A DNA stretch of 64,000 nt from Patescibacteria group bacterium (GCA_043817315.1 JBDRGY010000002.1:1046-65045); one strand, 5' to 3'; positions 8,895 to 64,000 are shown, counted from the stretch's first letter. A program made the numbers and translations. The notes: generated by a model not told the origin, from the letters alone.

Positions 8895-11800
8895 TTAAAA
8901 CAAATTGCCGATGTTTCCTAACCAGGAGAAAGTCTGTTCTAGGTTGGAGATAACTATCTGCAAGAAAGATTCTCTGGCCCTGGAAGTTAACACTGAATAA
9001 TCGTCCGATTTAGTTTCGTTTCCAGCTTTATCTACAGCTATTGTTCTAAAATGGTAAGTTCGGGCCGGCTCCAGGTCGGGTATAATCATCAAGTGATCCT
9101 GCACCAGTTCCGGATTAATATCGGTCGAAGCTGAATATGAAGTTGACCCCAGCCCCTCCCCAAAATCAGCCGCGGTAGTGGTTGGCTCATCAGTTCTAAA
9201 GGAGACAATAATCTGAATTCTGGCTGCATCACCCGATCCCACTGTATTGGACTCATACTTGACGTGAGAAATGGTAGGCGGCGTAGTATCCTCTAAGGTT
9301 CTAAAGTTGTTTTCTACTGAAACGGCCTCGTAGCCGAATTGGTCGCGGCCCCGAACCACAAAATTGTAAATAGTTGCATCATTTAAGCCAAAAAGCAAGA
9401 CGGAGTGATCGGTTACCAGGGCAGTATTACCTTGAGTTTTGGACGGTTCATTTTCATTGTAGTATTCCACTTCCGAAGTAGTGGGCACATTGGTGGTCCA
9501 CCTAATCTCTGTTTGACCTTCGGCTTTGTTTTCCGAGGTAACATCAGACACTCGCGGAAAGGTTAGGGTAGTAAAGACATAATTATCCGAATTAAATTTA
9601 TTGCCGGAAGCATCTTCTGCATAAACTCTCAAATTATAGGTGGTTCCGTCTGCTAATCCTGTCAGTTTAATAGTGTGAGTAAAGCTAGTAGAGCCAGAGG
9701 TGTCAGTGTAGGTTAAACCATAATCCGTAGTAGTCCCATATTGAATCTGGGTAGTCGTTTCTTTATTAGTTTTCCAGGAAATTGTCGCTTCATACAACCT
9801 AATATCAGTAATCTCCATTTCCGATACCCGCGGCGCTTCTAGAGTAATAAATGAGGTTACGTCGGAATAGGCTTCATTTTCATCTCGGTCAATGGATTTT
9901 ACCTGGTAGTAATAAGTAGTTTCTGGATCTAAACCGGTAATCGTCACCGAATGATCATCAATTAAGTCAGAAGTTCCCTGTTCTCGATCATAATCTGTAG
10001 CCGAAGTTCCAAACAGGACAAAGGAGGAGGCCGGTCTTTCTGTTTTCCAGGTGACGGTGGCCGCAAAGGAATCAGGTACTATGGCCGGTCCAGCTGTAAT
10101 TTCCGGCGGAGTGGTATAACGACCGTCAGCTATTTCTTCAACTGGATCAGTGGCCGCTGAAGCGGATCCGGCTTTGTCAGCTGCTTTTACCTTGTAAAAA
10201 TATAATGTCTCAAATTCTAAATCAGTATCGATATAGGCAGTAGATTTGGTGGTGGCAATAACCTCATAGTCATTGTCCTCTTCAACCGCTCTATATATTG
10301 TATAGGTAATTTCTTCTTCCAGATCTTCTTCGACTGCATCTTTTACGATTCCAGAGGCACTGGGAGGATCAACCGAATTCCAACTGACCATTATTCGATA
10401 TTCTTTATCGGCCCGGTTGGAGACATCAAAGACTTCAGGATTAAGAGGAGCATCCGGCGGGATGGTATGAGCTTCAAAATCCACTACCGCATAATTGGCA
10501 TAATTTACATTACCGGCATCATCAGTGGCCACTACGTAGAAATTATTTATTCCCTGTTGAGTGGCTGCCGCAATCGGGCCTACTTCCGTATGAGTAGTAT
10601 AATAGACATTATCTTCGTTGGGCGGGGCATTAATACTGTAGTAATAACCTCCGACCGTAATTCCCTCGTCTACCGGCTCGGCCCAAGAGAAAGTGAAGCG
10701 ATTAACCATGTTTGATTCCGGATCAACTGCCAGATTGACCGGAGCGGAAGGGGCACCCAAGGTGGTTACTTCGTATATGGCTGATTCCCCGGTATTTCCA
10801 TCTTGGTCCACCCAGACTAATTTATAGTAATAAAGGGTGTCCGGTGATAGTCCAGTGACTAAAACCTCATGCTCGTCAACCAACTCTGAGGTGCCGGTTT
10901 CTTCTCCCAAACCTTCAGTCGTTCCGTATTGGACAAAAGAGGTAGCCGGATGAGGAATAACATTACCCAAACGATCTTGATCTGGCAAAGTCAGCCACTC
11001 GACCAAAACGGACCTGATGTAAGGAGTTACCGTCGGCTGACCGGACATAGTTGGGGCAAATTTAAATTTACCTTCCGGCTTAATACTTTCTACTGCCGAA
11101 TTACCGGAAGCGGCATTCCCACTGCCAACCGCTCTGATGAAATAACTATAGGTAATGGTGTTGTCCAAACTGGTATCTAAATAACCCAAAGTGGTAGTTG
11201 TAGCAATGTTGGTGTAATTATCTGGGGGATCAGCTACTGTGGATGGATTCTCACAATCTTCCTCACAACGATAAACTTTAAAGTTCTCGGCATTGGCCGT
11301 TTCATCCCAAGTCAGAGTGACTGAATATTTTTGAGTGGAACGATCAGAGGAGTCAGTCGCCTGCAAACTGGCTGGCGGATCTGGAGCAGTAGAAGTGAAG
11401 TCATAAGTTGTAGAGGTATAATTATCGTAATCAATGTTATTAATCACATCAGCTGCCACCAGATATAAAGTATTAGTCCCTTGTTGGGTAGCCGCTGAAA
11501 AACCAGGTAATAATCTGTTGTCAGTCTGATAGGCCGAGGTCCAACCACCGTCCGGACTGGGGGTAGTATTGCCGGCCGTATTGGTACCACAATTTTCGGC
11601 GCTAGGTAATTCATTGATTGTGAAACAATAACGTAAAATTTCATTAACATCACAAGGAGTCTGACCCAAACAGGTAGCCGGTAAGCTCCAGGAAAAGGAA
11701 AAAGTGTTATTGTTTGTGGCTGAAGTAGGCGTCGCCACTAAATTTTGCGGGGCTGTTGGCGGACTACCGGCATAGTAATAAGTAGTAGTGGCATAAGAAG

Positions 11801-19509: not shown

Positions 19510-19586
19510 GCGCCCGTAGCTCAATTGGATAGAGCGCTTGGCTTCGGACCAAGAGGTTGGGGGTTCGACTCCCTCCGGGCGTACCA
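19510..19586 (+). tRNA. tRNA-Arg (anticodon TCG), CCA encoded
   Basis: Cloverleaf folded by eye: acceptor GCGCCCG/CGGGCGT, D-arm GCTC-AATTGGATA-GAGC, anticodon stem CTTGG/CCAAG with loop CTTCGGA, T-arm GGGGG-TTCGACT-CCCTC, then A and CCA. Confidence 0.9.
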
Positions 19587-19599
19587 GCCAGAAAATTAG

Positions 19600-19675
19600 G
19601 CGCCCATAGCTCAATTGGTAGAGCGCCTGCCTCTTAAGCAGGGTGTTGCAGGTTCGAGTCCTGCTGGGCGTACCA
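19600..19675 (+). tRNA. tRNA-Lys (anticodon CTT), CCA encoded
   Basis: Acceptor GCGCCCA/TGGGCGT, anticodon stem CCTGC/GCAGG with loop CTCTTAA, T-arm GCAGG-TTCGAGT-CCTGC, then A and CCA. Confidence 0.9.
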
Positions 19676-30051: not shown

Positions 30052-30216
30052 ATGTCTGAAGAAGAAATTAACCCAACCTACCTAAAAAGGGATTTGATCT
30101 TTACTCTGATTTTGTCTCTGGTTGTGGTCATGATTTTCGCCGGCCTGGTATTGATGGAGAGCAGTACCGGCCAAATCAGCCAAGTTGCCCACAAATTGAT
30201 GAATTACTTGATATAG
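30052..30216 (+). CDS. Small hypothetical membrane protein (54 aa)
   Basis: ATG ORF MSEEEINPTYLKRDLIFTLILSLVVVMIFAGLVLMESSTGQISQVAHKLMNYLI with one TM helix. Below the ORF-track cutoff. Confidence 0.25.
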   Translation: MSEEEINPTYLKRDLIFTLILSLVVVMIFAGLVLMESSTGQISQVAHKLMNYLI

Positions 30217-30349
30217 CTCTATTTTACGAAGCTTATTTTTGGCTATTATTAGGTAAAAGTCTGCATATTTTTTCTAATATTGACGTTTTGCTGACAAGAT
30301 GTTCCACGTGGAACATCATCTGTATTTTTAGCTAAGGTTAGGCAAATTT

Positions 30350-30421
30350 GCCCTTGTAGCTCAATGGATAGAGCAGATCCGTCCTAAGGATAAGATGGGG
30401 GTTCGATTCCCTCCAAGGGCA
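30350..30421 (+). tRNA. tRNA-Arg (anticodon CCT), no encoded CCA
   Basis: Acceptor GCCCTTG/CAAGGGC, D-arm GCTC-AATGGATA-GAGC, anticodon loop GTCCTAA, T-arm GGGGG-TTCGATT-CCCTC. Confidence 0.8.
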
Positions 30422-30501
30422 TATTACAGCGAATTCTTAAGGTCTTGAGCCGTATGAAAGGCCGAAATCCCGCCGATTGGCGGGGCCTCTCGGGAGACCA
30501 T

Positions 30502-30556
30502 GGGCCGTTAGCTCAGTTGGCTAGAGCGTCACTTTCGCACCCGCCTATCGGAGTGC
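30502..30556 (+). pseudogene. 5' fragment of a tRNA-Ala (CGC)-like gene (acceptor, D-arm and anticodon-loop remnant) directly upstream of the complete tRNA-Ala(CGC)
   Basis: GGGCCGTTAGCTCAGTTGGCTAGAGCGTCACTTTCGCAC is near-identical to the 5' half of the tRNA-Ala at 31767. No matching anticodon 3' stem or T-arm follows. Continues as linker CCGCCTATCGGAGTGC. Confidence 0.5.
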
Positions 30557-30628
30557 GGGCCAGTAGCTCAGTGGTAGAGCACTGCATTCGCATTGCAGGG
30601 GTCAGGGGTTCGACTCCCCTCTGGTCCA
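30557..30628 (+). tRNA. tRNA-Ala (anticodon CGC), G3:U70, no encoded CCA
   Basis: Acceptor GGGCCAG/CTGGTCC (G3:T70), D-arm GCTC-AGTGGTA-GAGC, anticodon stem CTGCA/TGCAG with loop TTCGCAT, T-arm AGGGG-TTCGACT-CCCCT, discriminator A. Confidence 0.9.
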
Positions 30629-30702
30629 TTTCCGCACGGCGGGCAGGTGGCGAAAGTCGCCCCGCTTTTTGGCGGAGCACGGCACCAAATCAAAAAAATG
30701 CC

Positions 30703-30740
30703 TAAAATCAGCCAAATTTTGGCTTGATTGTTTTTACAAA
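30703..30740 (+). terminator. Rho-independent terminator (AGCCAAAATTTTGGCT palindrome plus T-run)
   Basis: Self-complementary CAGCCAAATTTTGGCTTG followed by ATTGTTTTT. Confidence 0.4.
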
Positions 30741-30802
30741 ATGTGTTAGAATTAAGTTGTCCTTAATTTAGAAAAAATCCAAATTGAAAGGGGGTGAACT
30801 AA

Positions 30803-31492
30803 ATGGATACTTTTACATCATGGGGAGACGCCCTAAATAACTCATTAGATAATATCTGGACAGGTTTCCTTGATTTTCTGCCCAAATTCGTAGGGGCAGT
30901 TTTAATCTTCGTAATTGGCTGGATCGTTTCAGTTCTGATCGGAAATTTGGTATCAAGAGTAGTCAAATACCTTTGGGTAGATCGCCTATTACAAAGAATT
31001 AAGGTTAAGGAGGCAGTAGAAAAAGCCGGTATAAAGGTTGATATTGCCAAAAGTATGGGGTTGATAGTTAAGTGGTTTTTGATCTTTGTTTTTCTAACTG
31101 CCGCTACTGATGTTGTGGGTTGGACTGAAGTTACTCTGTTTTTGCGTAAATTCGTCGGTTATCTGCCAAATGTGATTATTGCCGTCATCATCTTCACCTT
31201 GGGCTTAATGTTTGCTAATTGGGTCCAAAGTGTGGTCAAAAAGTCAATTTCCGCCTATAAATTGCTCTCTCCTGAATTAGTATCAGCCATAGCTAAGTGG
31301 TCCATCGTTGTTTTCAGTCTGCTGGCCGCCTTAATCCAGTTAAGGGTCGCTCCTTCACTATTACAAACCTTATTCACAGGTATTGTTGCCATGATCGCTA
31401 TTGCCGGAGGCCTGGCTTTTGGCTTGGGTGGCAAGGAATATGCCCGGAACCTTTTAGAAAAAGTCCAAAAAGACGTCCATCCTAAAGAATAA
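30803..31492 (+). CDS. Membrane protein with repeated conserved TM-helix motifs (MscS-like N-terminal TM_helix repeat family)
   Basis: 229 aa, 4-5 TM helices with repeated (I/V)x(I/V)xxxLxxAA-like segments; RBS GAAAGGGGGTG upstream. Confidence 0.5.
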   Translation: MDTFTSWGDALNNSLDNIWTGFLDFLPKFVGAVLIFVIGWIVSVLIGNLVSRVVKYLWVDRLLQRIKVKEAVEKAGIKVDIAKSMGLIVKWFLIFVFLTAATDVVGWTEVTLFLRKFVGYLPNVIIAVIIFTLGLMFANWVQSVVKKSISAYKLLSPELVSAIAKWSIVVFSLLAALIQLRVAPSLLQTLFTGIVAMIAIAGGLAFGLGGKEYARNLLEKVQKDVHPKE

Positions 31493-31707
31493 AGACTAAA
31501 AACGCTTGCTAGTATTTCTCTTTTTAAGCTATAATCTTTCTAGTAAGCGTTTTTGTTTATGGGCCGGTCCCTAGGTCCCGCACTGCGGGACCGGGATCCC
31601 GATCACCAAAAGTGACTTAGGGATAGTTCAGTTTCCGCCAAAGGCGGACCAGCCTCTGGCTGGGGCTATCATCTCTTTGCGATAAAAAGTATTATATTAA
31701 TCAATTT

Positions 31708-31891
31708 GGGCCGGTAGTTCAGTTAGCTAGAATGCCTCCATGGCATGCCTGCCCGCCAGGACCCATGGGCCGTTGGCTCAGTTGGTAGAGCGTCTCCATG
31801 GCATGGAGAAGGTCACCGGTTCGAATCCGGTCCGGTCCATAGGCTCTGGCAGGCGGGGAGGAGGTCAGGGGTTCGAGTCCCCTCCGGTCTA
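31708..31891 (+). tRNA. Outer tRNA-Ala (GGC) gene interrupted between positions 38 and 39 by a 110-nt insert (31747..31856) that contains a second complete tRNA-Ala(GGC)
   Basis: 5' exon 31708..31746: GGGCCGG TA GTTC-AGTTAGCTA-GAAT G CCTCC ATGGCAT. 3' exon 31857..31891: GGAGG AGGTC AGGGG-TTCGAGT-CCCCT CCGGTCT A, followed by TTTTTTATTT. All stems pair (G1:U72, G3:U70). Insert flanks GCCTGCCCGCC and GGCAGGCGGGG are mutually complementary. Confidence 0.5.
31767..31839 (+). tRNA. tRNA-Ala (anticodon GGC), nested inside the outer tRNA-Ala locus; no encoded CCA
   Basis: Acceptor GGGCCGT with G3:T70, D-arm GCTC-AGTTGGTA-GAGC, anticodon stem TCTCC/GGAGA with loop ATGGCAT, T-arm ACCGG-TTCGAAT-CCGGT, discriminator A. 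Confidence 0.85.
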
Positions 31892-31967
31892 TTTTTTATT
31901 TGACCAACCGTTAAGCATTTGTTAAGTTTATATACTTTAAGAGTTGCTCTTTCCCCAGGGAGGGCGT

Positions 31968-32462
31968 ATGCGCGAGATGATCGTGGAGACAGTTCCGGTT
32001 GTTCCGGACCTAGGCAATATGGGTTGCCCTGATTGGTTTCACCACCACGGCCGTAAGATGCGGTTAACTGTGGCCGATACGACCAAGCAAGTAGTGGTCA
32101 TATCTGCTTCAGCGGCCACCTTGACCATCTCTGTCAAGGAAGTAGGTAGGGGCGACGAGTGGTTTGTGGCCTGGGAAGTTGTCCAGTCGCAGCTGGCGAA
32201 GACCAACGGACGCGTTGTCATGTCCTGCGATGAATTGAGTGCTGCCTTCGGCATTGCCGATCATTCTTACCGATACGGTGGTTGGGTCATCGAAAGATTC
32301 GGCGGCGACTCTGCCAATCAAGGCCAGTACCTTCGCTACCAGGATTTTCTCAACATCCCTTGTCCCGGCACCGGGCATGATGGTGATCCCAACATCTCTG
32401 TGGAGCTGGATGACGAGATTAAGGATGCCATTCGTCAACTAGTCAGAGCCCGCATGGGCTAA
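31968..32462 (+). CDS. Hypothetical protein (164 aa) on a compositionally atypical GC-rich segment
   Basis: ATG at 31968 preceded by GGAGGG RBS (the ORF track begins at an upstream TTG, 31944). About 55% GC against about 42% locally. No recognisable motif. Followed by terminator hairpin AGAGCCGATTCC...GGATTGGCTCT TTTT. Confidence 0.55.
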   Translation: MREMIVETVPVVPDLGNMGCPDWFHHHGRKMRLTVADTTKQVVVISASAATLTISVKEVGRGDEWFVAWEVVQSQLAKTNGRVVMSCDELSAAFGIADHSYRYGGWVIERFGGDSANQGQYLRYQDFLNIPCPGTGHDGDPNISVELDDEIKDAIRQLVRARMG

Positions 32463-32534
32463 GAGAACAGAGCCGATTCCATTAATGGATTGGCTCTTTT
32501 AAATTGCCCGGCCCTGCACCGAATTTGGTGCGGG

Positions 32535-32562
32535 TTGACATTATTTCTAGCTGTGTTATTAT
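32535..32562 (+). promoter_or_regulatory. Sigma-70-like promoter (TTGACA, 16-nt spacer, TATTAT)
   Basis: TTGACA at 32535-32540 and TATTAT at 32557-32562; the palindromic operator starts 7 nt downstream. Confidence 0.5.
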
Positions 32563-32568
32563 ATCAAT

Positions 32569-32585
32569 ATACCCCCTGGGGGTAT
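32569..32585 (+). promoter_or_regulatory. CsoR-type operator palindrome ATACCCCCTGGGGGTAT (site 1)
   Basis: Perfect 8+1+8 inverted repeat overlapping the predicted transcription start. Same class as known CsoR operators (TACCC...GGGTA with G/C tracts). Confidence 0.6.
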
Positions 32586-32602
32586 GTGGATAACTATATT
32601 AT

Positions 32603-33145
32603 ATGGCTGTCTTAAGAAATTTCAGTATCAAATTTGTCGATATAATGATTGGTGTTGTTTTGGGTGTTGGTTTTCAGTGGTGGCCCGACCTCAAAGAGGT
32701 CTGGCAGTATCTAGCATTCCTGTTTGTTTACTTAAATTTAATCGATTATTGGATTGACTATTCCCCTACTATCAAGAAATTCCCCTTAAAGAGAGAGTTA
32801 GACGTCATCCTTCATACTTTTATAATTTTCTCCATGTTTTTCCTGATATTTAACACCAGTAATTCTTTGTCTGCCTTTTTATTAGCGTTCGTTCTTTACC
32901 GCATTCTAGATATTGTGTGGATCTGGAGAATGAAAACCGTTTACAGGGCAAGCGCTTATGATAAAAAATTTCTCAATTCCTGGGGTTTACAAGATATTTA
33001 CGAAGTAGCCTTCACCTTGCTCCTGCTATTGGCTTTCTGGATGTGGAAAGGACAGCCGTTGTATTATTTACTTATTTTTATCGCCTTGAGAGTGCTTACT
33101 AGAATTATGGCTAGCTTGCGTTATAAAAAAATATATTATTCTTAG
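32603..33145 (+). CDS. Polytopic membrane protein of unknown function (180 aa), flanked by CsoR-type operators
   Basis: ORF track; about 5 TM helices, aromatic-rich (W/Y/F). No recognisable family. Confidence 0.65.
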   Translation: MAVLRNFSIKFVDIMIGVVLGVGFQWWPDLKEVWQYLAFLFVYLNLIDYWIDYSPTIKKFPLKRELDVILHTFIIFSMFFLIFNTSNSLSAFLLAFVLYRILDIVWIWRMKTVYRASAYDKKFLNSWGLQDIYEVAFTLLLLLAFWMWKGQPLYYLLIFIALRVLTRIMASLRYKKIYYS

Positions 33146-55516: not shown

Positions 55517-55829
55517 AGGTTAACCAATTTAAAATCCCCTTTATTTTGGGGAGTAATTTACATAATAACACGGCTATTTTGCCCTGTCAAGGGATAAAAA
55601 AGGCCTGGAAATCCGCTTCTTCTTTGGTCGTTTTTAAGACTTGTTCTTGATTCCTTTTCCCACCAACCAGATAACTACTATTAAGACAATTGCTGCTGTT
55701 ACCCAAGCCCACCAGTAGTCGATAATTATTTCTTCCATCTTTTTTTGTCGATTACTTTTTTATTTATTAGAGCGAGTGACCCCGCTGTTGGCGGGGCGTC
55801 TTCGGCTCGCTTGTATAACCTGTTCAGTA

Positions 55830-55901
55830 AGCGGGTGAGCGGAATCGAACCGCCGTCTTCAGGTTGGAAACCTGACATAATAGCCACTATACTACACCCG
55901 C
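55830..55901 (-). tRNA. tRNA-Gly (anticodon TCC), no encoded CCA
   Basis: Minus-strand sequence GCGGGTG TA GTAT-AGTGGCTA-TTAT G TCAGG TTTCCAA CCTGA AGAC GGCGG-TTCGATT-CCGCT CACCCGC T. Confidence 0.85.
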
Positions 55902-55958
55902 CCGCCCAATTCCTGGAACCTACATCTTTCTAGATAAGTTACAAGAATTGGGCGGGCG
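55899..55958. repeat. Perfect 14-bp inverted repeat CGCCCGCCCAATTC ... GAATTGGGCGGGCG with 32-nt loop, overlapping the 5' end of tRNA-Gly(TCC)
   Basis: Arms at 55899-55912 and 55945-55958 are exact reverse complements. Lies immediately downstream of the minus-strand GIY-YIG gene stop (55963). Confidence 0.5.
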
Positions 55959-55962
55959 CGCC

Positions 55963-56220
55963 TTAACGAGACGCTAGATAATTTTTTAAGTTTTTCTTAA
56001 TAAATCTTCTCCCCCAGCCACTTTTATAGTATCTTTCTCTCTGGAGGGCATCTTGCTTGCTCAGGAAAGCTTCGCAATAAATTAACTTCAGTGGTAAGTG
56101 GGGCTGGGTTGAATAAGTTGACCCTTTATTGTGTTCTTTGACTCTCTTCTTTAGATTCTTGGTGAATCCTATATATAACCTGCCATTTTTCTCACTTTGT
56201 AGAATGTACACGTAATACAT
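55963..56220 (-). CDS. Small GIY-YIG nuclease-domain protein (85 aa), second copy
   Basis: MYYVYILQSEKNGRLYIGFTKNLKKRVKEHNKG; GIY-YIG motif. Confidence 0.75.
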   Translation of the reverse strand: MYYVYILQSEKNGRLYIGFTKNLKKRVKEHNKGSTYSTQPHLPLKLIYCEAFLSKQDALQRERYYKSGWGRRFIKKNLKNYLASR

Positions 56221-60030: not shown

Positions 60031-60284
60031 TGGTGCCGAGGGGCAGAATCGAACTGCCGACGCAAGGATTTTCAGTCCTTCGCCCCGCCCGCCGAACAAC
60101 GGCGAACTTGGAAGTAATCTACCTTTGGTGCCTGGGGCCAGAATCGGACTGGCGACGCAAGGATTTTCAGTCCTTCGCTCTACCACTGAGCTACCCAGGC
60201 TTCAAAGACAGACTACAAATTTCTTTTTCAATCAACTATATTCGCTCGGCGTTGCGGACAGGTCTACCACTGAGCTACCTCGGC
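60031..60284 (-). other. Nested tRNA-Phe locus: split outer tRNA-Phe-like copy flanking the complete tRNA-Phe
   Basis: 5' fragment 60263-60284 is GCCGAGG TA GCTCAGTGGTAGA. 3' fragment 60031-60082 is CGAAGGA CTGAAAA TCCTT GCGTC GGCAG-TTCGATT-CTGCC CCTCGGC A CCA. Acceptor strands GCCGAGG/CCTCGGC pair across the intervening complete gene. Linkers contain CCTGTCCGC and GGCGGGCGGGG. Confidence 0.5.
60126..60200 (-). tRNA. tRNA-Phe (anticodon GAA), CCA encoded
   Basis: Minus strand: GCCTGGG TA GCTC-AGTGGTA-GAGC G AAGGA CTGAAAA TCCTT GCGTC GCCAG-TCCGATT-CTGGC CCCAGGC A CCA. Confidence 0.9.
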
Positions 60285-60356: not shown

Positions 60357-62003
60357 CTATTTTGGGGAATATTTATAGATTCTAACGTAATCACCCTTAA
60401 GCAAATCTACCCGGCAAGTTCTTAAAACCGAAAAGTCGTTACTGTATAAAAGCTGTTCGGGAGTGTATTCCGGGTTAGGTTCTACGGCGTAGATTAATTC
60501 GTTTTGGGAGGTTAGTTGCTGGTACTGTTCCGCCGCCCAGACAAAGTTGGGTTCGGGATCGGGGAAACCAGCCTCCTGAAGAATGCGACCGTGTACCCCT
60601 CCGGAAATGATGAAGTGGGTCGCTCCTTGCTTTTCATATTCTTCTCGGTCTCGCACAGTTAAATTGGGAACCTTTTCGGTAATATATTTATCAGCAGGCA
60701 AATCCGGGGTATACGGTTCTACTACAAATTCAGTACCTTCCGGCATTTCCCGTAATATATATTGGCGTGCTTTCTCAATAGTGTAGTCATCCGCCCAACC
60801 GTACATGGTCCGAGCTAAGCGCCAGGCAGGGGCAGCAAATATGATTATACAGATTAAAACCGCTAACCAGCGGCGGCGACTACAATACTTAAAAATATAA
60901 TCAAGACCGGCTGCTCCCATGATAAATAAGATAGTAACCGCCGGGATCAACCATCTGGCCCAGTGCAGATTAAGAACGGACAGCAATAAAATGTAGCTGA
61001 TGACGCTGATTAACAGAAAGAAAAACTTAAATTCACGCTGGCTATATTTCTTTTTGATTATCTTGTAGCAAATAAAAAATATAATTGCTAGGGTTATCAA
61101 AAATAGAAAGGTGCCCAGTTGCCAGTGTAGAGTATCTATGGTATACCATTTTAAATTGCCCCAAAAACCAAGATCATCATGACCTCCGTGCTCCGTCCGG
61201 TTTTCAATTACCAGATGATAAAGCACACGGTGGAAATTCAAAAATAAAAACGGCCCGGTGACAAAGCTAGCCACAATAGCTGCAAAACCACTGGCCAGCC
61301 AGTTCTTGATAAACAGTTTCTTCTGACGCCACAACCAAACAAATATCATGATTAGTGGCACTACAAAAAATAGAGAAGGATATTTAGTAGCCGCGGCCAC
61401 TCCCAGGCTGGCTCCGACCCCCAGATACCAACCAATTTTGGCCGGCTGATCGATCAAGCGGAAGACAAAAAACAACATCAGCATCAAGAAAAAAGTTTGG
61501 ATAATGTCTGGTCGGATTATATGTGAGTGGTCCACCAGAAAAAATGAGGTGGCCACCAGAATTGCAGCTATAATTCCTGTTCTTTTATTCCAGTGCTTAC
61601 CGACAAAGTAGGCCAACAAAACAGTAGCCGCTCCCAAGAGAGCAGGTAACATCCGGCCGGCTGTCTGAAAAATGGTGGTAAATAACTGGTAGTTTTGGGA
61701 AGCGGCTAAGGCAGTCTCGTGAGCTTGGTTAACAAAAAAGTTAATAATTCTAAAAATAAAACCCATGCCATAGATCAGGGACTGGGCAGGAGCACCAAAC
61801 CAGCCGGGGTTTAAAGCACCGTTGGCAATATTGAGGGCCGGTTCTACGAAAAATTCTTCATCCACCAAATAAAGCCGGGGTAATCCAAAACTGATAAAGA
61901 CCAAACGCAAAATCAGGCCAATTAAAAAAATCGCCATTAGTATGATGAATATCTTGCTGGGCTTGCGAATATGTTTCATTCCTTTGGCGATTATGGTGGG
62001 CAC
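60357..62003 (-). CDS. GT-C superfamily membrane glycosyltransferase (GT39/ArnT/PMT-like), second copy
   Basis: 548 aa, about 12 TM helices plus a C-terminal soluble domain. The ORF-track start is a GTG at 62003 that overlaps the outer tRNA-Ile 3' fragment; the ATG at 61979 is an alternative start. Confidence 0.55.
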   Translation of the reverse strand: MPTIIAKGMKHIRKPSKIFIILMAIFLIGLILRLVFISFGLPRLYLVDEEFFVEPALNIANGALNPGWFGAPAQSLIYGMGFIFRIINFFVNQAHETALAASQNYQLFTTIFQTAGRMLPALLGAATVLLAYFVGKHWNKRTGIIAAILVATSFFLVDHSHIIRPDIIQTFFLMLMLFFVFRLIDQPAKIGWYLGVGASLGVAAATKYPSLFFVVPLIMIFVWLWRQKKLFIKNWLASGFAAIVASFVTGPFLFLNFHRVLYHLVIENRTEHGGHDDLGFWGNLKWYTIDTLHWQLGTFLFLITLAIIFFICYKIIKKKYSQREFKFFFLLISVISYILLLSVLNLHWARWLIPAVTILFIMGAAGLDYIFKYCSRRRWLAVLICIIIFAAPAWRLARTMYGWADDYTIEKARQYILREMPEGTEFVVEPYTPDLPADKYITEKVPNLTVRDREEYEKQGATHFIISGGVHGRILQEAGFPDPEPNFVWAAEQYQQLTSQNELIYAVEPNPEYTPEQLLYSNDFSVLRTCRVDLLKGDYVRIYKYSPK

Positions 62004-62379
62004 GGATGGATTCGAACCATCGACCTCGTCATTACCTGCCCGCCGTACGGATACACGTATTAATCATCTACTGCTGGTGGGCACGGATGGAGTTGAACCA
62101 TCGACCTCGTCATTATCAGTGACGCGCTCTAACCAACTGAGCTACGTGCCCCCCAGCAGTAGACAAAAATAAACTTCCTATTGGTTGGGTTAATGTAAAA
62201 GTTCTTTGAGGCACCGTACTCCGGCAGGCGGGTCAGTGACCCCGCAACTAGGTTCGTTACACTCGCCAGTGCGGGGCAGGCGCGCTTTCCTATTTGGTGC
62301 TTACAGTAAGTTGGTGCGCTCCCCGTCCGACTGTCTGGCGTCAGTCAAGCTGACGGGTAGCTAACTGAGCTACGTGCCC
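61994..62379 (-). other. Nested tRNA-Ile locus: split outer tRNA-Ile-like copy flanking the complete tRNA-Ile(GAT)
   Basis: 5' fragment 62358-62379 is GGGCACG TA GCTCAGTTAGCTA. 3' fragment 61994-62034 is TAA TGACG AGGTC GATGG-TTCGAAT-CCATC CGTGCCC A CCA, preceded by GGCGGGCAGG (62035-62048). The upstream linker contains CCCGCCTGCC and GCCTGCCCCGC. Confidence 0.5.
62075..62151 (-). tRNA. tRNA-Ile (anticodon GAT), CCA encoded
   Basis: Minus strand: GGGCACG TA GCTC-AGTTGGTTA-GAGC G CGTCA CTGATAA TGACG AGGTC GATGG-TTCAACT-CCATC CGTGCCC A CCA. Confidence 0.9.
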
Positions 62380-63448: not shown

Positions 63449-64000
63449 TAGAAAGGAGGTGATCCATCCACAGCTTCCGCTACGGATGCCTTGTTACGAC
63501 TTCGTCCCTATTATCGATCCTACCTTCGGCCCAGTAAACTGGGACTTCGGGTATTACCGACTCTCTTGACGTGACGGGCGGTGTGTACAAAACCCGAGAA
63601 CGTATTCAACGCGCCGTGGCTGATGCGCGTTTACTAGTGATTCCAGCTTCATGAGGTCGAGTTTCAGACCTCAATCCGAACTGAGACTAGGTTTGATGGG
63701 ATTAGCTCCACGTTACCGTTTCGCAAGACCCATTGTTACTAGCCATTGTAGCACGTGTGTCGCCCAGGGCGTCAGAGGACCATGCTGATCTGACGTCATC
63801 CCTTCCTTCCTCCCCCTTAAAGGGGGCAGTCTGACATGAACAATTTAACATATCACAGGGGTTGCGCTCGTTTCCGGACTTAACCGTACATCTCACGACA
63901 CGAGCTGACGACGACCATGCAGCACCTGTCACTAGGCTCCTTTGCAGGCACATTCTCCTTTCGGTGAATTTCCTAGGATGTCAAGCCCTGGTAAGGTTTC
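63449..64000 (-). rRNA. rrs: 16S ribosomal RNA, 3' portion (continues beyond window end)
   Basis: Plus strand carries reverse complements of the universal 16S 3' motifs: AGAAAGGAGGTGATCC (anti-SD end), TACGGCTACCTTGTTACGACTT-like ACGGATGCCTTGTTACGACTT, TGACGGGCGGTGTGTACAA and GCATGGTCGTCGTCAGCTCGTG. The covered region corresponds to roughly E. coli positions 970-1542. Confidence 0.9.

Follow-up and report, generated by a model that had tools for sequence, protein, structure and literature searches.

The nested tRNA-Ala(GGC) locus and its relatives

The 64,000-nucleotide stretch of a Patescibacteria group bacterium analysed here (GCA_043817315.1, JBDRGY010000002.1:1046-65045; hereafter the window, meaning this stretch at its full length) carries a bacterial 16S fragment at 63452-64000 and, at 31708-31891, a tRNA-Ala(GGC) gene split in its anticodon arm by an insert of 110 nt, which itself holds a second complete tRNA-Ala(GGC) at 31767-31839. 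This nesting had been noticed in an earlier model-made reading of the DNA (the sequence-only reading), and the sequence, ARAGORN and Rfam all confirm it. From 5' to 3' the locus comprises the 5' piece of the outer gene, GGGCCGGTAGTTCAGTTAGCTAGAATGCCTCCATGGCAT(G), a linker, the inner tRNA, a second linker, the 3' piece (G)GAGGAGGTCAGGGGTTCGAGTCCCCTCCGGTCTA, and the run TTTTTT. The features of the locus are:

31506..31535, + strand: promoter-like TTGCTA-18-TATAAT of the resident tRNA-Ala(GGC) locus, matching the consensus at 10/12 positions
31561..31672, + strand: relic of an older tRNA-Ala 5' piece (GGGCCGG...GATAGTTCAGTT...GGCTA), broken by small inserts, among them a double-hairpin element at 31633-31663
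31708..31747, + strand: outer tRNA-Ala(GGC) 5' piece, comprising the acceptor 5' strand, D arm, anticodon stem 5' strand, anticodon loop and G39
31748..31857, + strand: insertion element of 110 nt with ends CCTGCCCGCC...GGCAGGCGGG, at which similarity to relative L002 starts and stops
31748-31766 and 31840-31857, + strand: stalk arms, paired in the minimum free energy (MFE) fold
31767..31839, + strand: inner (cargo) tRNA-Ala(GGC), the presumed working gene (ARAGORN, Rfam)
31858..31891, + strand: outer 3' piece, comprising the anticodon stem 3' strand, variable loop, T arm, acceptor 3' strand and A73, with C72>U and CCA replaced by TTT
31892..31897, + strand: T-run after the outer 3' end, seen in the sequence

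The outer pieces 31708-31747 and 31858-31891, joined by hand, form a cloverleaf in which all four arms pair and G1:U72 and G3:U70 are present; ARAGORN calls it as a tRNA-Ala(ggc) of 74 nt. The outer gene had been described as flawless, which holds for its arms but not for its D loop, where the invariant G18 is an A; this position is G in all five aligned relative and cargo genes. The junction is ambiguous by one G: it can be written as 38/39, as it was at first, or equally as 39/40 with the insert running CCTGCCCGCC...GGCAGGCGGG (31748-31857), and the latter is the boundary set by the ends of the element family. The insert has no coding capacity and its termini are complementary, as in miniature elements, the ends CCTGCCCGCC and GGCAGGCGGG pairing with each other at 9/10 positions with one wobble and one mismatch. 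The helix suggested earlier at the base of the insert is indeed paired in the MFE fold of the 184-nt region, which consists of nested cloverleaves with the linker helix between them (-87.2 kcal/mol, z = -2.68). One G too many had been given to the 3' linker, however, which has 17 nt and not 18. The inner tRNA scores 59 bits in Rfam RF00005 against a gathering score of 29 bits, is called Ala(ggc) by ARAGORN, has the G3:U70 pair and a U7:C66 mismatch, and lacks an encoded CCA. On the contiguous locus the standard callers (ARAGORN, Rfam) report the inner gene alone, and ARAGORN run on the window in intron mode (-i0,250/300) reported no outer gene either. The T-run had also been pointed out correctly; the terminator scan did not call it, and any role assigned to it would be conjectural.

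The protein encoded at 30803-31492 matches an NCBI 'Patescibacteria group bacterium' entry with 100% identity. By means of the flanking mechanosensitive-channel-like protein (77-80% amino-acid identity) we retrieved four syntenic relatives (L001, L002, L003 and L122). In L001, L003 and L122 the tRNA-Ala(GGC) at the same locus is uninterrupted and lies directly downstream of a conserved TTGCTAGT...GGCTATAAT block, which also precedes the L002 locus and is the promoter-like site 31506-31535 of the window. The joined outer gene of the window is identical to the uninterrupted gene of L003 at 71/73 positions, the differences being G18>A and C72>U, with the encoded CCA changed to TTT; hence, the outer gene is not a chance cloverleaf. 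The inner and outer tRNAs of the window differ at about a quarter of their positions, with compensated changes in the stems, and therefore the inner gene is not a local copy. In L002 the same element lies between unrelated flanks: the two copies are identical at 104/107 positions within CCTGCC...GGCAGGC and fall to background level outside it, and their tRNAs differ only at position 66, where L002 has an A that gives a U7:A66 pair. As the cassette-specific pattern GGACCCATGGGCC N{58,66} GGTCCATAGG had no match in JGI metagenomes or IMG/VR, L002 is the only other known copy of this cassette. The relic at 31561-31672 (fold z = -3.44) is placed where the tRNA begins in L001 and L003, and is homologous to the outer 5' piece of L002, GGGCCCATAGTTCAGTT-TCCACCAAGGGCGGATCAGCCTCAGACTGAGG-CTA. 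The L002 sequence is the GTDB contig JAIWBS010000045.1 (also L075), which is syntenic with the window yet belongs to a metagenome-assembled genome (MAG) labelled 'Pirellulales bacterium', probably a binning error.

The element family and the distribution of nests

Three further nests with the same end motifs, involving tRNA-Ala(CGC), tRNA-Phe and tRNA-Ile, bring the copies in the window to four; with up to one mismatch allowed, the window has 12 occurrences of the end motif where 2.5 would be expected, and no further tRNA-Ala fragment was found there. These nests are:

30502..30686, + strand: second nest, resident tRNA-Ala(CGC), with decayed 5' piece 30502-30539 and decayed 3' piece 30648-30686
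30540-30647, + strand: second-nest element CCCGCC...GGCGGGCAGG, with cargo tRNA-Ala(CGC) at 30557-30628
60031..60284, - strand: third nest, resident tRNA-Phe(GAA) split in the D stem (23/24), with 5' piece 60284-60263 and 3' piece 60083-60031
60262-60084, - strand: third-nest element of 179 nt, CCTGTCCGC...GGCGGGCGGG, with cargo tRNA-Phe at 60200-60126
61994..62379, - strand: fourth nest, resident tRNA-Ile(GAT) split at 35/36, with intact 3' piece 62034-61994 and 5' piece 62379-62233
62232-62035, - strand: fourth-nest element of 198 nt, CCCGCCTGCC...GGCGGGCAGG, with cargo tRNA-Ile at 62151-62075

Joined outer pieces of the third and fourth nests are called by ARAGORN as tRNA-Phe(gaa) and tRNA-Ile(gat), respectively. 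The outer tRNA-Phe is perfect; its 3' piece by itself reaches only 29 bits in Rfam, as a 'tRNA-Phe' at 60031-60103. The Ile-type arms are in the reverse-complement arrangement of the family arms, and the 5' piece of this nest (62379-62233) is broken further by two hairpin inserts. The joined outer tRNA-Ala(CGC) of the second nest, whose 3' piece has a GC hairpin in place of the T arm, is too decayed for an ARAGORN call; it has an uninterrupted homologue in L002 at 2299-2378.

A scan of JGI metagenomes with the pattern CCTGCCCGCC N{78,102} GGCAGGCGGG recovered at least 120 loci, and 10 more came from viral contigs; some matches to this two-end pattern are chance ones in GC-rich DNA. The AT-moderate members are most often 102 nt long and unrelated in their interiors; they share extended ends of 16 nt, (A)CCTGCCCGCCAWTGCC ... 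GGCRWTGGCAGGCGGG, which are conserved across the family. Among the matches listed, to which all the following counts from these scans refer, 28/133 elements carry a tRNA. When the element is deleted exactly, ARAGORN calls a host tRNA in 18 of these 28, of which 16 agree with their cargo in anticodon and strand. The element interrupts its host in one of the three loops, after position 21-23, 33-36 or 54-55, and most of the 10 uncallable hosts still have cognate fragments. All 18 host tRNAs are restored without a base gained or lost, and the junction in the window has at most one ambiguous G; there is thus no target-site duplication of fixed length. With respect to the tRNA the arms run one way in 20 elements and the other way in 8, which argues for an element acting at the level of DNA rather than for a signal that belongs to the transcribed RNA.

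At least 12 different tRNA cargos are found between the same arms, which also enclose non-tRNA interiors. None of about 105 cargo-less copies lies inside a callable tRNA, and a search with Rfam of 17 loci with cargo-less elements found none inside known RNA genes. A cargo-less member of 102 nt at 2546-2647 of L138 (Ga0100380_10007641) interrupts the open reading frame (ORF) of an IS91-like transposase (...CEGCGHEFLLAFSCKRRHFCPSCHQKR|VVEFGEW...), which indicates that the family truly inserts into DNA. At distinct cargo-less sites the base preceding the element is A in 42/59; the empty sites fold at -3.51 kcal/mol as against -2.78 ± 0.25 kcal/mol for re-paired controls, and in 27/34 structured sites the junction lies within a predicted hairpin loop. 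The two ends of the element pair with each other and do not form separate subterminal hairpins.

Several further possibilities for the family were examined and set aside. 1) The longest matches between interior and flank (6.56 versus 6.18 in re-paired controls) are only marginally longer, so that the interior is not taken to be a guide complementary to the target. 2) Relaxed ARAGORN calls and T-loop motif counts in cargo-less interiors are no higher than in shuffled sequences, and these interiors are thus not regarded as decayed tRNAs. 3) Candidates for an autonomous copy with the same ends and an ORF (L125, L231 and L249) proved to be separate small elements flanking ordinary genes. 4) Carriage of the cargo elements by phages is not supported by the 10 viral-contig matches, which hold no tRNA and are mostly GC-rich chance matches or hairpins consisting of arms only. 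One such IMG/VR contig (L249, about 10436-11451, - strand) has arms-only hairpins of 33 nt, CCTGCCCGCCAGTGCC AGGCGATGGCAGGCGGG, with no interior and a spacing of about 1 kb, and these may be the minimal unit of the family.

We also scanned GTDB, with one genome per species, for tRNA-Ala-like 5' ends repeated 43-73 nt downstream (the counts are lower bounds), and aligned every tRNA in the hits to its own flanks, which separated two classes. True nests, consisting of a 5' fragment, an arm, a full tRNA, the complementary arm and a 3' fragment, are almost confined to the Candidate Phyla Radiation (CPR) among the matches listed. They occur in Uhrbacteria (L009, L053), Staskawiczbacteria (L033), Colwellbacteria (L065), Doudnabacteria (L102) and Kaiserbacteria (L114), as well as in unclassified Patescibacteria (L031, L064, L077, L107); the sequence-only reading had suggested looking for the same architecture in related CPR genomes, and it is thus present in several CPR phyla. 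The arm sequences vary between nest families, with pairing kept in all; the arms covary between two Uhrbacteria species, and those of Doudnabacteria L102 are the same as in the Ile nest of the window, as is the insertion site. A relative of the window organism (L072) has stacked nests: its tRNA-Arg(CCT) is three layers deep, all at one D-loop site, and its tRNA-Ala(CGC) has at least three layers with two alleles alternating. All L072 junctions are identical (..GCATTCG|TCCCGCAC...GTGCGGGA|C..), and the older a layer is, the more small hairpin inserts it has suffered. L175 and L031 have one-sided tandem arrays of units made of a 5' piece and an arm.

The second class, set apart from the nests for want of a 3' fragment or paired arms, is found outside CPR and consists of a 16-41-nt copy of the tRNA 5' end lying 20-50 nt upstream of an intact gene. 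It occurs in Clostridia (tRNA-Ala CGC), Gammaproteobacteria (tRNA-Met CAT) and Bacteroidota (tRNA-Val), as in L012, L014, L027, L074, L110 and many others. In DPANN archaea, tRNA-Ala genes have their own 5' end copied (15-17 nt) together with a hairpin upstream (L011 and L117 in Micrarchaeota; L105 and L116 in Nanohaloarchaea).

Certain smaller structures recur around dead outer pieces. A double-hairpin element of about 30 nt (TCCGCCAAAGGCGGA + CCAGCCTCTGGCTGG) occurs in the window (31633-31663), L002 (3278-3308), L031, L072 and L175, in both orientations, in D loops and T loops of dead outer pieces in distant CPR genomes; it looks like a second, smaller family of mobile hairpins. Remnants of tRNA 3' ends in which the T arm is swapped for a GC hairpin (CCCCGCC-loop-GGCGGGG), and which then continue into the acceptor 3' strand and CCA, are seen at L122 1125-1165, L002 3420-3463 and window 30648-30686, the one in L122 following an intact tRNA and having no 5' partner. 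In the window (55770-55970, - strand) the tRNA-Gly(TCC) gene at 55829-55902 is preceded by a long hairpin, CGCCCAATTC...GAATTGGGCG, and followed on its 3' side by a GC hairpin CCCCGCCAACAGCGGGG and by TCACTCGCT, the latter resembling an old acceptor 3' strand; this region may be a fifth, heavily decayed nest.

Element insertion and its alternatives

The comparisons above establish the insertion of a discrete element without target duplication, a cargo cognate to the host gene, and decay of the outer copy. Decay is visible in the outer tRNA-Ala(CGC), which has lost its T arm, in the outer tRNA-Ile with its extra hairpin inserts, and in the increasingly damaged outer layers of L072. In light of this we consider it likely that the insert is a hairpin-armed miniature element, that the resident gene is a young pseudogene and that the cargo tRNA supplies the function. 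The sequence-only reading had offered a very recent insertion scar as its alternative, which was right in substance and understated the case, the insert being a mobile-type element of a large family that brings a replacement tRNA.

According to this proposal, an element with ends CCTGCCCGCC...GGCAGGCGGG, or with their reverse-complement arrangement, would have entered the resident anticodon arm at the DNA level and without target duplication, making of the split tRNA-Ala(GGC) a young pseudogene altered only at G18, C72 and the CCA end, while the cargo tRNA-Ala(GGC) took over the function. The whole nested unit would presumably be transcribed from the resident promoter, that is, driven by the promoter-like site at 31506-31535. 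The arms may then pair as a stalk of about 16 bp, insulating the inner cloverleaf from the near-identical outer halves, and the inner tRNA could be released through RNase P and through 3' processing by an endonuclease or exonuclease, together with the CCA-adding enzyme, the cargo having no encoded CCA. The outer halves would remain unjoined, as by-products. Any element that entered a single-copy tRNA gene and brought no matching cargo would kill the cell. Within the family, copies with a tRNA occur almost exclusively inside the cognate gene, most likely because nested alleles spread into intact cognate genes by recombination, with the outer pieces serving as homology arms. This spread would account for the identical junctions in successive layers and for the alternation of alleles, and the previous cargo tRNA would provide the intact target for the next round, resulting in Russian-doll stacks.

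Some observations weigh against this explanation or complicate it. 1) Random insertion plus selection alone predicts many free-standing copies of the cargo, and almost none are seen, which is why we favour spread by recombination. 2) The outer gene of the window is two substitutions away from a functional orthologue, and many metagenomic outer genes are perfect once the element is deleted; both fit a recent insertion and equally a retained function. 3) The U7:C66 mismatch is present in the inner tRNA of the window and not in the cargo of L002. 4) The history of the locus exceeds a single insertion, there being a relic 5' piece (31561-31672) upstream and a variable islet (31944-33145) downstream. 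5) With no target duplication and imperfect inverted-repeat ends, the element is not a textbook miniature inverted-repeat transposable element (MITE). 6) No transposase or autonomous copy of the element was found among the candidate end pairs.

A first alternative is that the outer halves have been retained as a non-decoding, tRNA-like scaffold, whose acceptor stem and T arm recruit RNase P, aid 3' processing or stabilise the precursor. Synthetic tRNA scaffolds behave in the manner proposed here for the outer halves. The acceptor stem, often with CCA, is the best preserved part of old outer genes (the Ala-CGC nest of the window, L002, L122), and in Uhrbacteria L009 and L053 there are compensatory changes in the outer T stem, the acceptor stem and the arms. 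However, these compensatory differences could equally be inherited from the once-functional resident gene of each species, the outer T and D loops are full of hairpin inserts in L072, L031 and L175, 10/28 outer genes are uncallable, and the uninterrupted relatives do without such a scaffold. We therefore regard this alternative as unlikely.

Less probable still is a true intervening sequence, in which the insert is removed from the transcript and the outer halves are ligated, so that both tRNAs are made; this is close to the intron-like or split-tRNA reading first put forward for the locus. The almost perfect outer cloverleaf, the callable tRNAs restored by exact deletion in 18/28 cases and the arms, which bring the two junctions together, agree with it, and Patescibacteria are rich in tRNA introns, though of group I (PMC13011429). 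However, the locus has no bulge-helix-bulge (or relaxed hBH) motif, which would hold both junctions in 3-nt bulges around a 4-bp helix: in the MFE and centroid folds a 7-nt loop ends at the 5' junction, and a helix directly abuts the 3' junction. With Rfam, no intron family (RF00028 for group I) was found in 30200-32200 at gathering score or at E<=10, nor any group II intron, and an insert of 110 nt, 73 of them tRNA, is too short. Cleavage by RNase P and RNase Z would leave the arms attached to the halves, and in L053/L009 and L072 5-11 host bases have been replaced, so that splicing could not restore the tRNA. Family members lie in the D stem (Phe), D loop, anticodon loop and T loop, their arm polarity is not fixed relative to the transcript, the outer G18 is mutated, and older outer genes decay. 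The plain uninterrupted gene in relatives, which the sequence-only reading had itself named as evidence against its proposal, is present in L001, L003 and L122.

Equally improbable is the formation of the nest in place, by local duplication and deletion within a tandem tRNA array. Inner and outer tRNAs are indeed 97-100% identical in several nests (L053, L065, L199, L229), and the one-sided arrays of L031 and L175 show that tandem repeats of a 5' piece with an arm exist. For the window locus, though, this origin is largely refuted by the outer-gene and L002 alignments: about one position in four differs between inner and outer, the changes in the stems being compensatory, the outer gene stands alone in relatives, and the same insert is sharply bounded in another context; the same arms are moreover combined with at least 12 tRNA cargos and with non-tRNA interiors. 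Finally, a chimeric join of two tRNA-Ala alleles is conceivable in that the window comes from a MAG, but such an artefact is scarcely credible given the same architecture in independent NCBI, ENA, Logan, JGI and GTDB assemblies and the four nests with precise element boundaries on one contig.

Neighbouring features, known systems and implications

Directly 3' of the nested tRNA lies a variable islet (31944-33145) with two ORFs encoding 164-172 aa and 180 aa, the second membrane-like; neither 31968-32459 nor 32603-33142 matched a Pfam family. Domains of a splicing endonuclease (EndA) or an RtcB-type ligase are likewise absent from the neighbouring ORFs tested within these 64 kb. Relatives have other small ORFs or nothing at this position, and this difference in content points to the tRNA flank as a hot spot of gene turnover. 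A perfect palindrome, (T)GTTCCACGTGGAAC(A), occurs at 30298-30317 of the window, at about 2010 in L002, about 2044 in L003, and about 4023 and 4545 in L072; it is conserved in all relatives, where it precedes the tRNA-Arg(CCT)/tRNA-Ala(CGC) cluster, was also found by the terminator scan, and could be an operator or a processing site. The adjacent tRNA-Arg(TCG) and tRNA-Lys(CTT) genes at 19510-19675 have near-identical acceptor stems and D arms, are 93% identical over their first 28 nt and both end in GGGCGTACCA, which suggests that one was derived from the other by duplication and a change of anticodon.

Among known systems, the integrative elements that target tRNA genes (prophages, genomic islands) likewise land in a tRNA gene, often in its anticodon or T loop, bring a replacement sequence and leave a displaced fragment. 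They are, however, kilobases long, encode an integrase, and replace only the 3' (or 5') part of the gene, with one fragment at the far end, whereas the window insert is of about 110 nt, has no enzyme gene, and holds a whole tRNA between paired arms with both host halves flanking it. Against the integrase gene, the att direct repeats of part of the tRNA and the kilobase-sized island of such elements stand the 110 nt of the insert, the absence of a further tRNA-Ala fragment from the window and downstream ORFs without a Pfam family. MITEs, Rickettsia palindromic elements, REPINs and the IS200/IS605-derived palindrome-associated transposable elements (PATEs) are similar as non-coding elements of about 100 nt with complementary ends, variable interiors, many copies and polymorphic presence, which land in genes and in hairpins between genes and rely on a trans-acting enzyme. 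The present family shares their copy number and polymorphism (four copies in the window, at least 120 metagenome loci, empty sites in L001, L003 and L122), but differs from MITEs in its lack of target duplication, its imperfect, polar inverted repeats and the functional-looking cognate tRNA in about a third of the copies of the size class searched. Compared with PATEs (no duplication, insertion 3' of a short fixed target, separate subterminal hairpins, TnpA in the genome) the family gives a mixed picture, having no duplication, a preceding A in 42/59 sites and a tendency towards hairpin loops, but ends that pair mutually.

Archaeal non-canonical tRNA introns, the transposed introns of Thermoproteales and the split tRNAs of Nanoarchaeum also involve short inserts flanked by pairing, at D-, anticodon- and T-loop positions, that have spread among tRNA genes. 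They need a bulge-helix-bulge motif together with a splicing endonuclease and a ligase, and it is the interrupted gene that works; in contrast, the nest of the window is bacterial and without this motif, and here it is the interrupted gene that decays and the insert that brings the tRNA. Group I introns are carried by tRNA genes of Patescibacteria (mSystems 2026, PMC13011429), whose host genes, like the outer genes here, are missed by standard tRNA finders; these are self-splicing ribozymes of more than 200 nt, whereas the insert of the window has 110 nt, no match to an intron model and a tRNA inside. The intervening sequences of bacterial 23S and 16S rRNA, cut out by RNase III without religation, are also stem-bounded inserts excised at a long helix; a fragmented rRNA stays functional, but a tRNA cut in the anticodon arm would not, the function being presumably provided here by the cargo.

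Our literature search, including a prokaryote-wide survey of MITEs, turned up no account of bacterial tRNA genes lying inside cognate tRNA genes, and no report, for any MITE family, of tRNA-carrying copies cognate to the host gene. The kinds of component are known, namely miniature non-autonomous elements and tRNA-targeting mobile DNA that offsets its own damage. The combination appears to be new: the cargo is an entire replacement tRNA, nesting is strictly cognate, stacks reach several layers, and the distribution in CPR is wide. Whether it amounts to an undescribed class of selfish elements in Patescibacteria, that is, miniature hairpin-armed cassettes that carry a complete tRNA only inside the cognate gene, and destroy and replace the host gene in one step, we judge to be evenly poised. 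If it does, loss of the insert would require a precise reversal, and repeated invasion of each new cargo would lead to stacks with competing, alternating alleles as in L072; tRNA genes in reduced genomes would turn over by replacement rather than by point mutation, and some machinery would move stem-bounded DNA into hairpin loops.

In practical terms, tRNA finders report the inner gene only, and sometimes decayed outer pieces as extra tRNAs, such as the 29-bit 'tRNA-Phe' of the window (60031-60103); hence, tRNA counts and pseudo-tRNA calls in CPR genomes are affected. The cognate rule, seen in 16/18 callable hosts and in the 0/~105 cargo-less copies inside tRNA genes, must be explained by any mechanism. 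These nests offer a system for studying horizontal exchange of tRNA genes among ultra-small bacteria, duplication-free insertion of DNA, preferentially after an A in hairpin loops, and the processing of a tRNA from a tRNA-like precursor. Besides self-splicing and partial restoration, full replacement would be a third way for a mobile insert to persist in an essential RNA gene.

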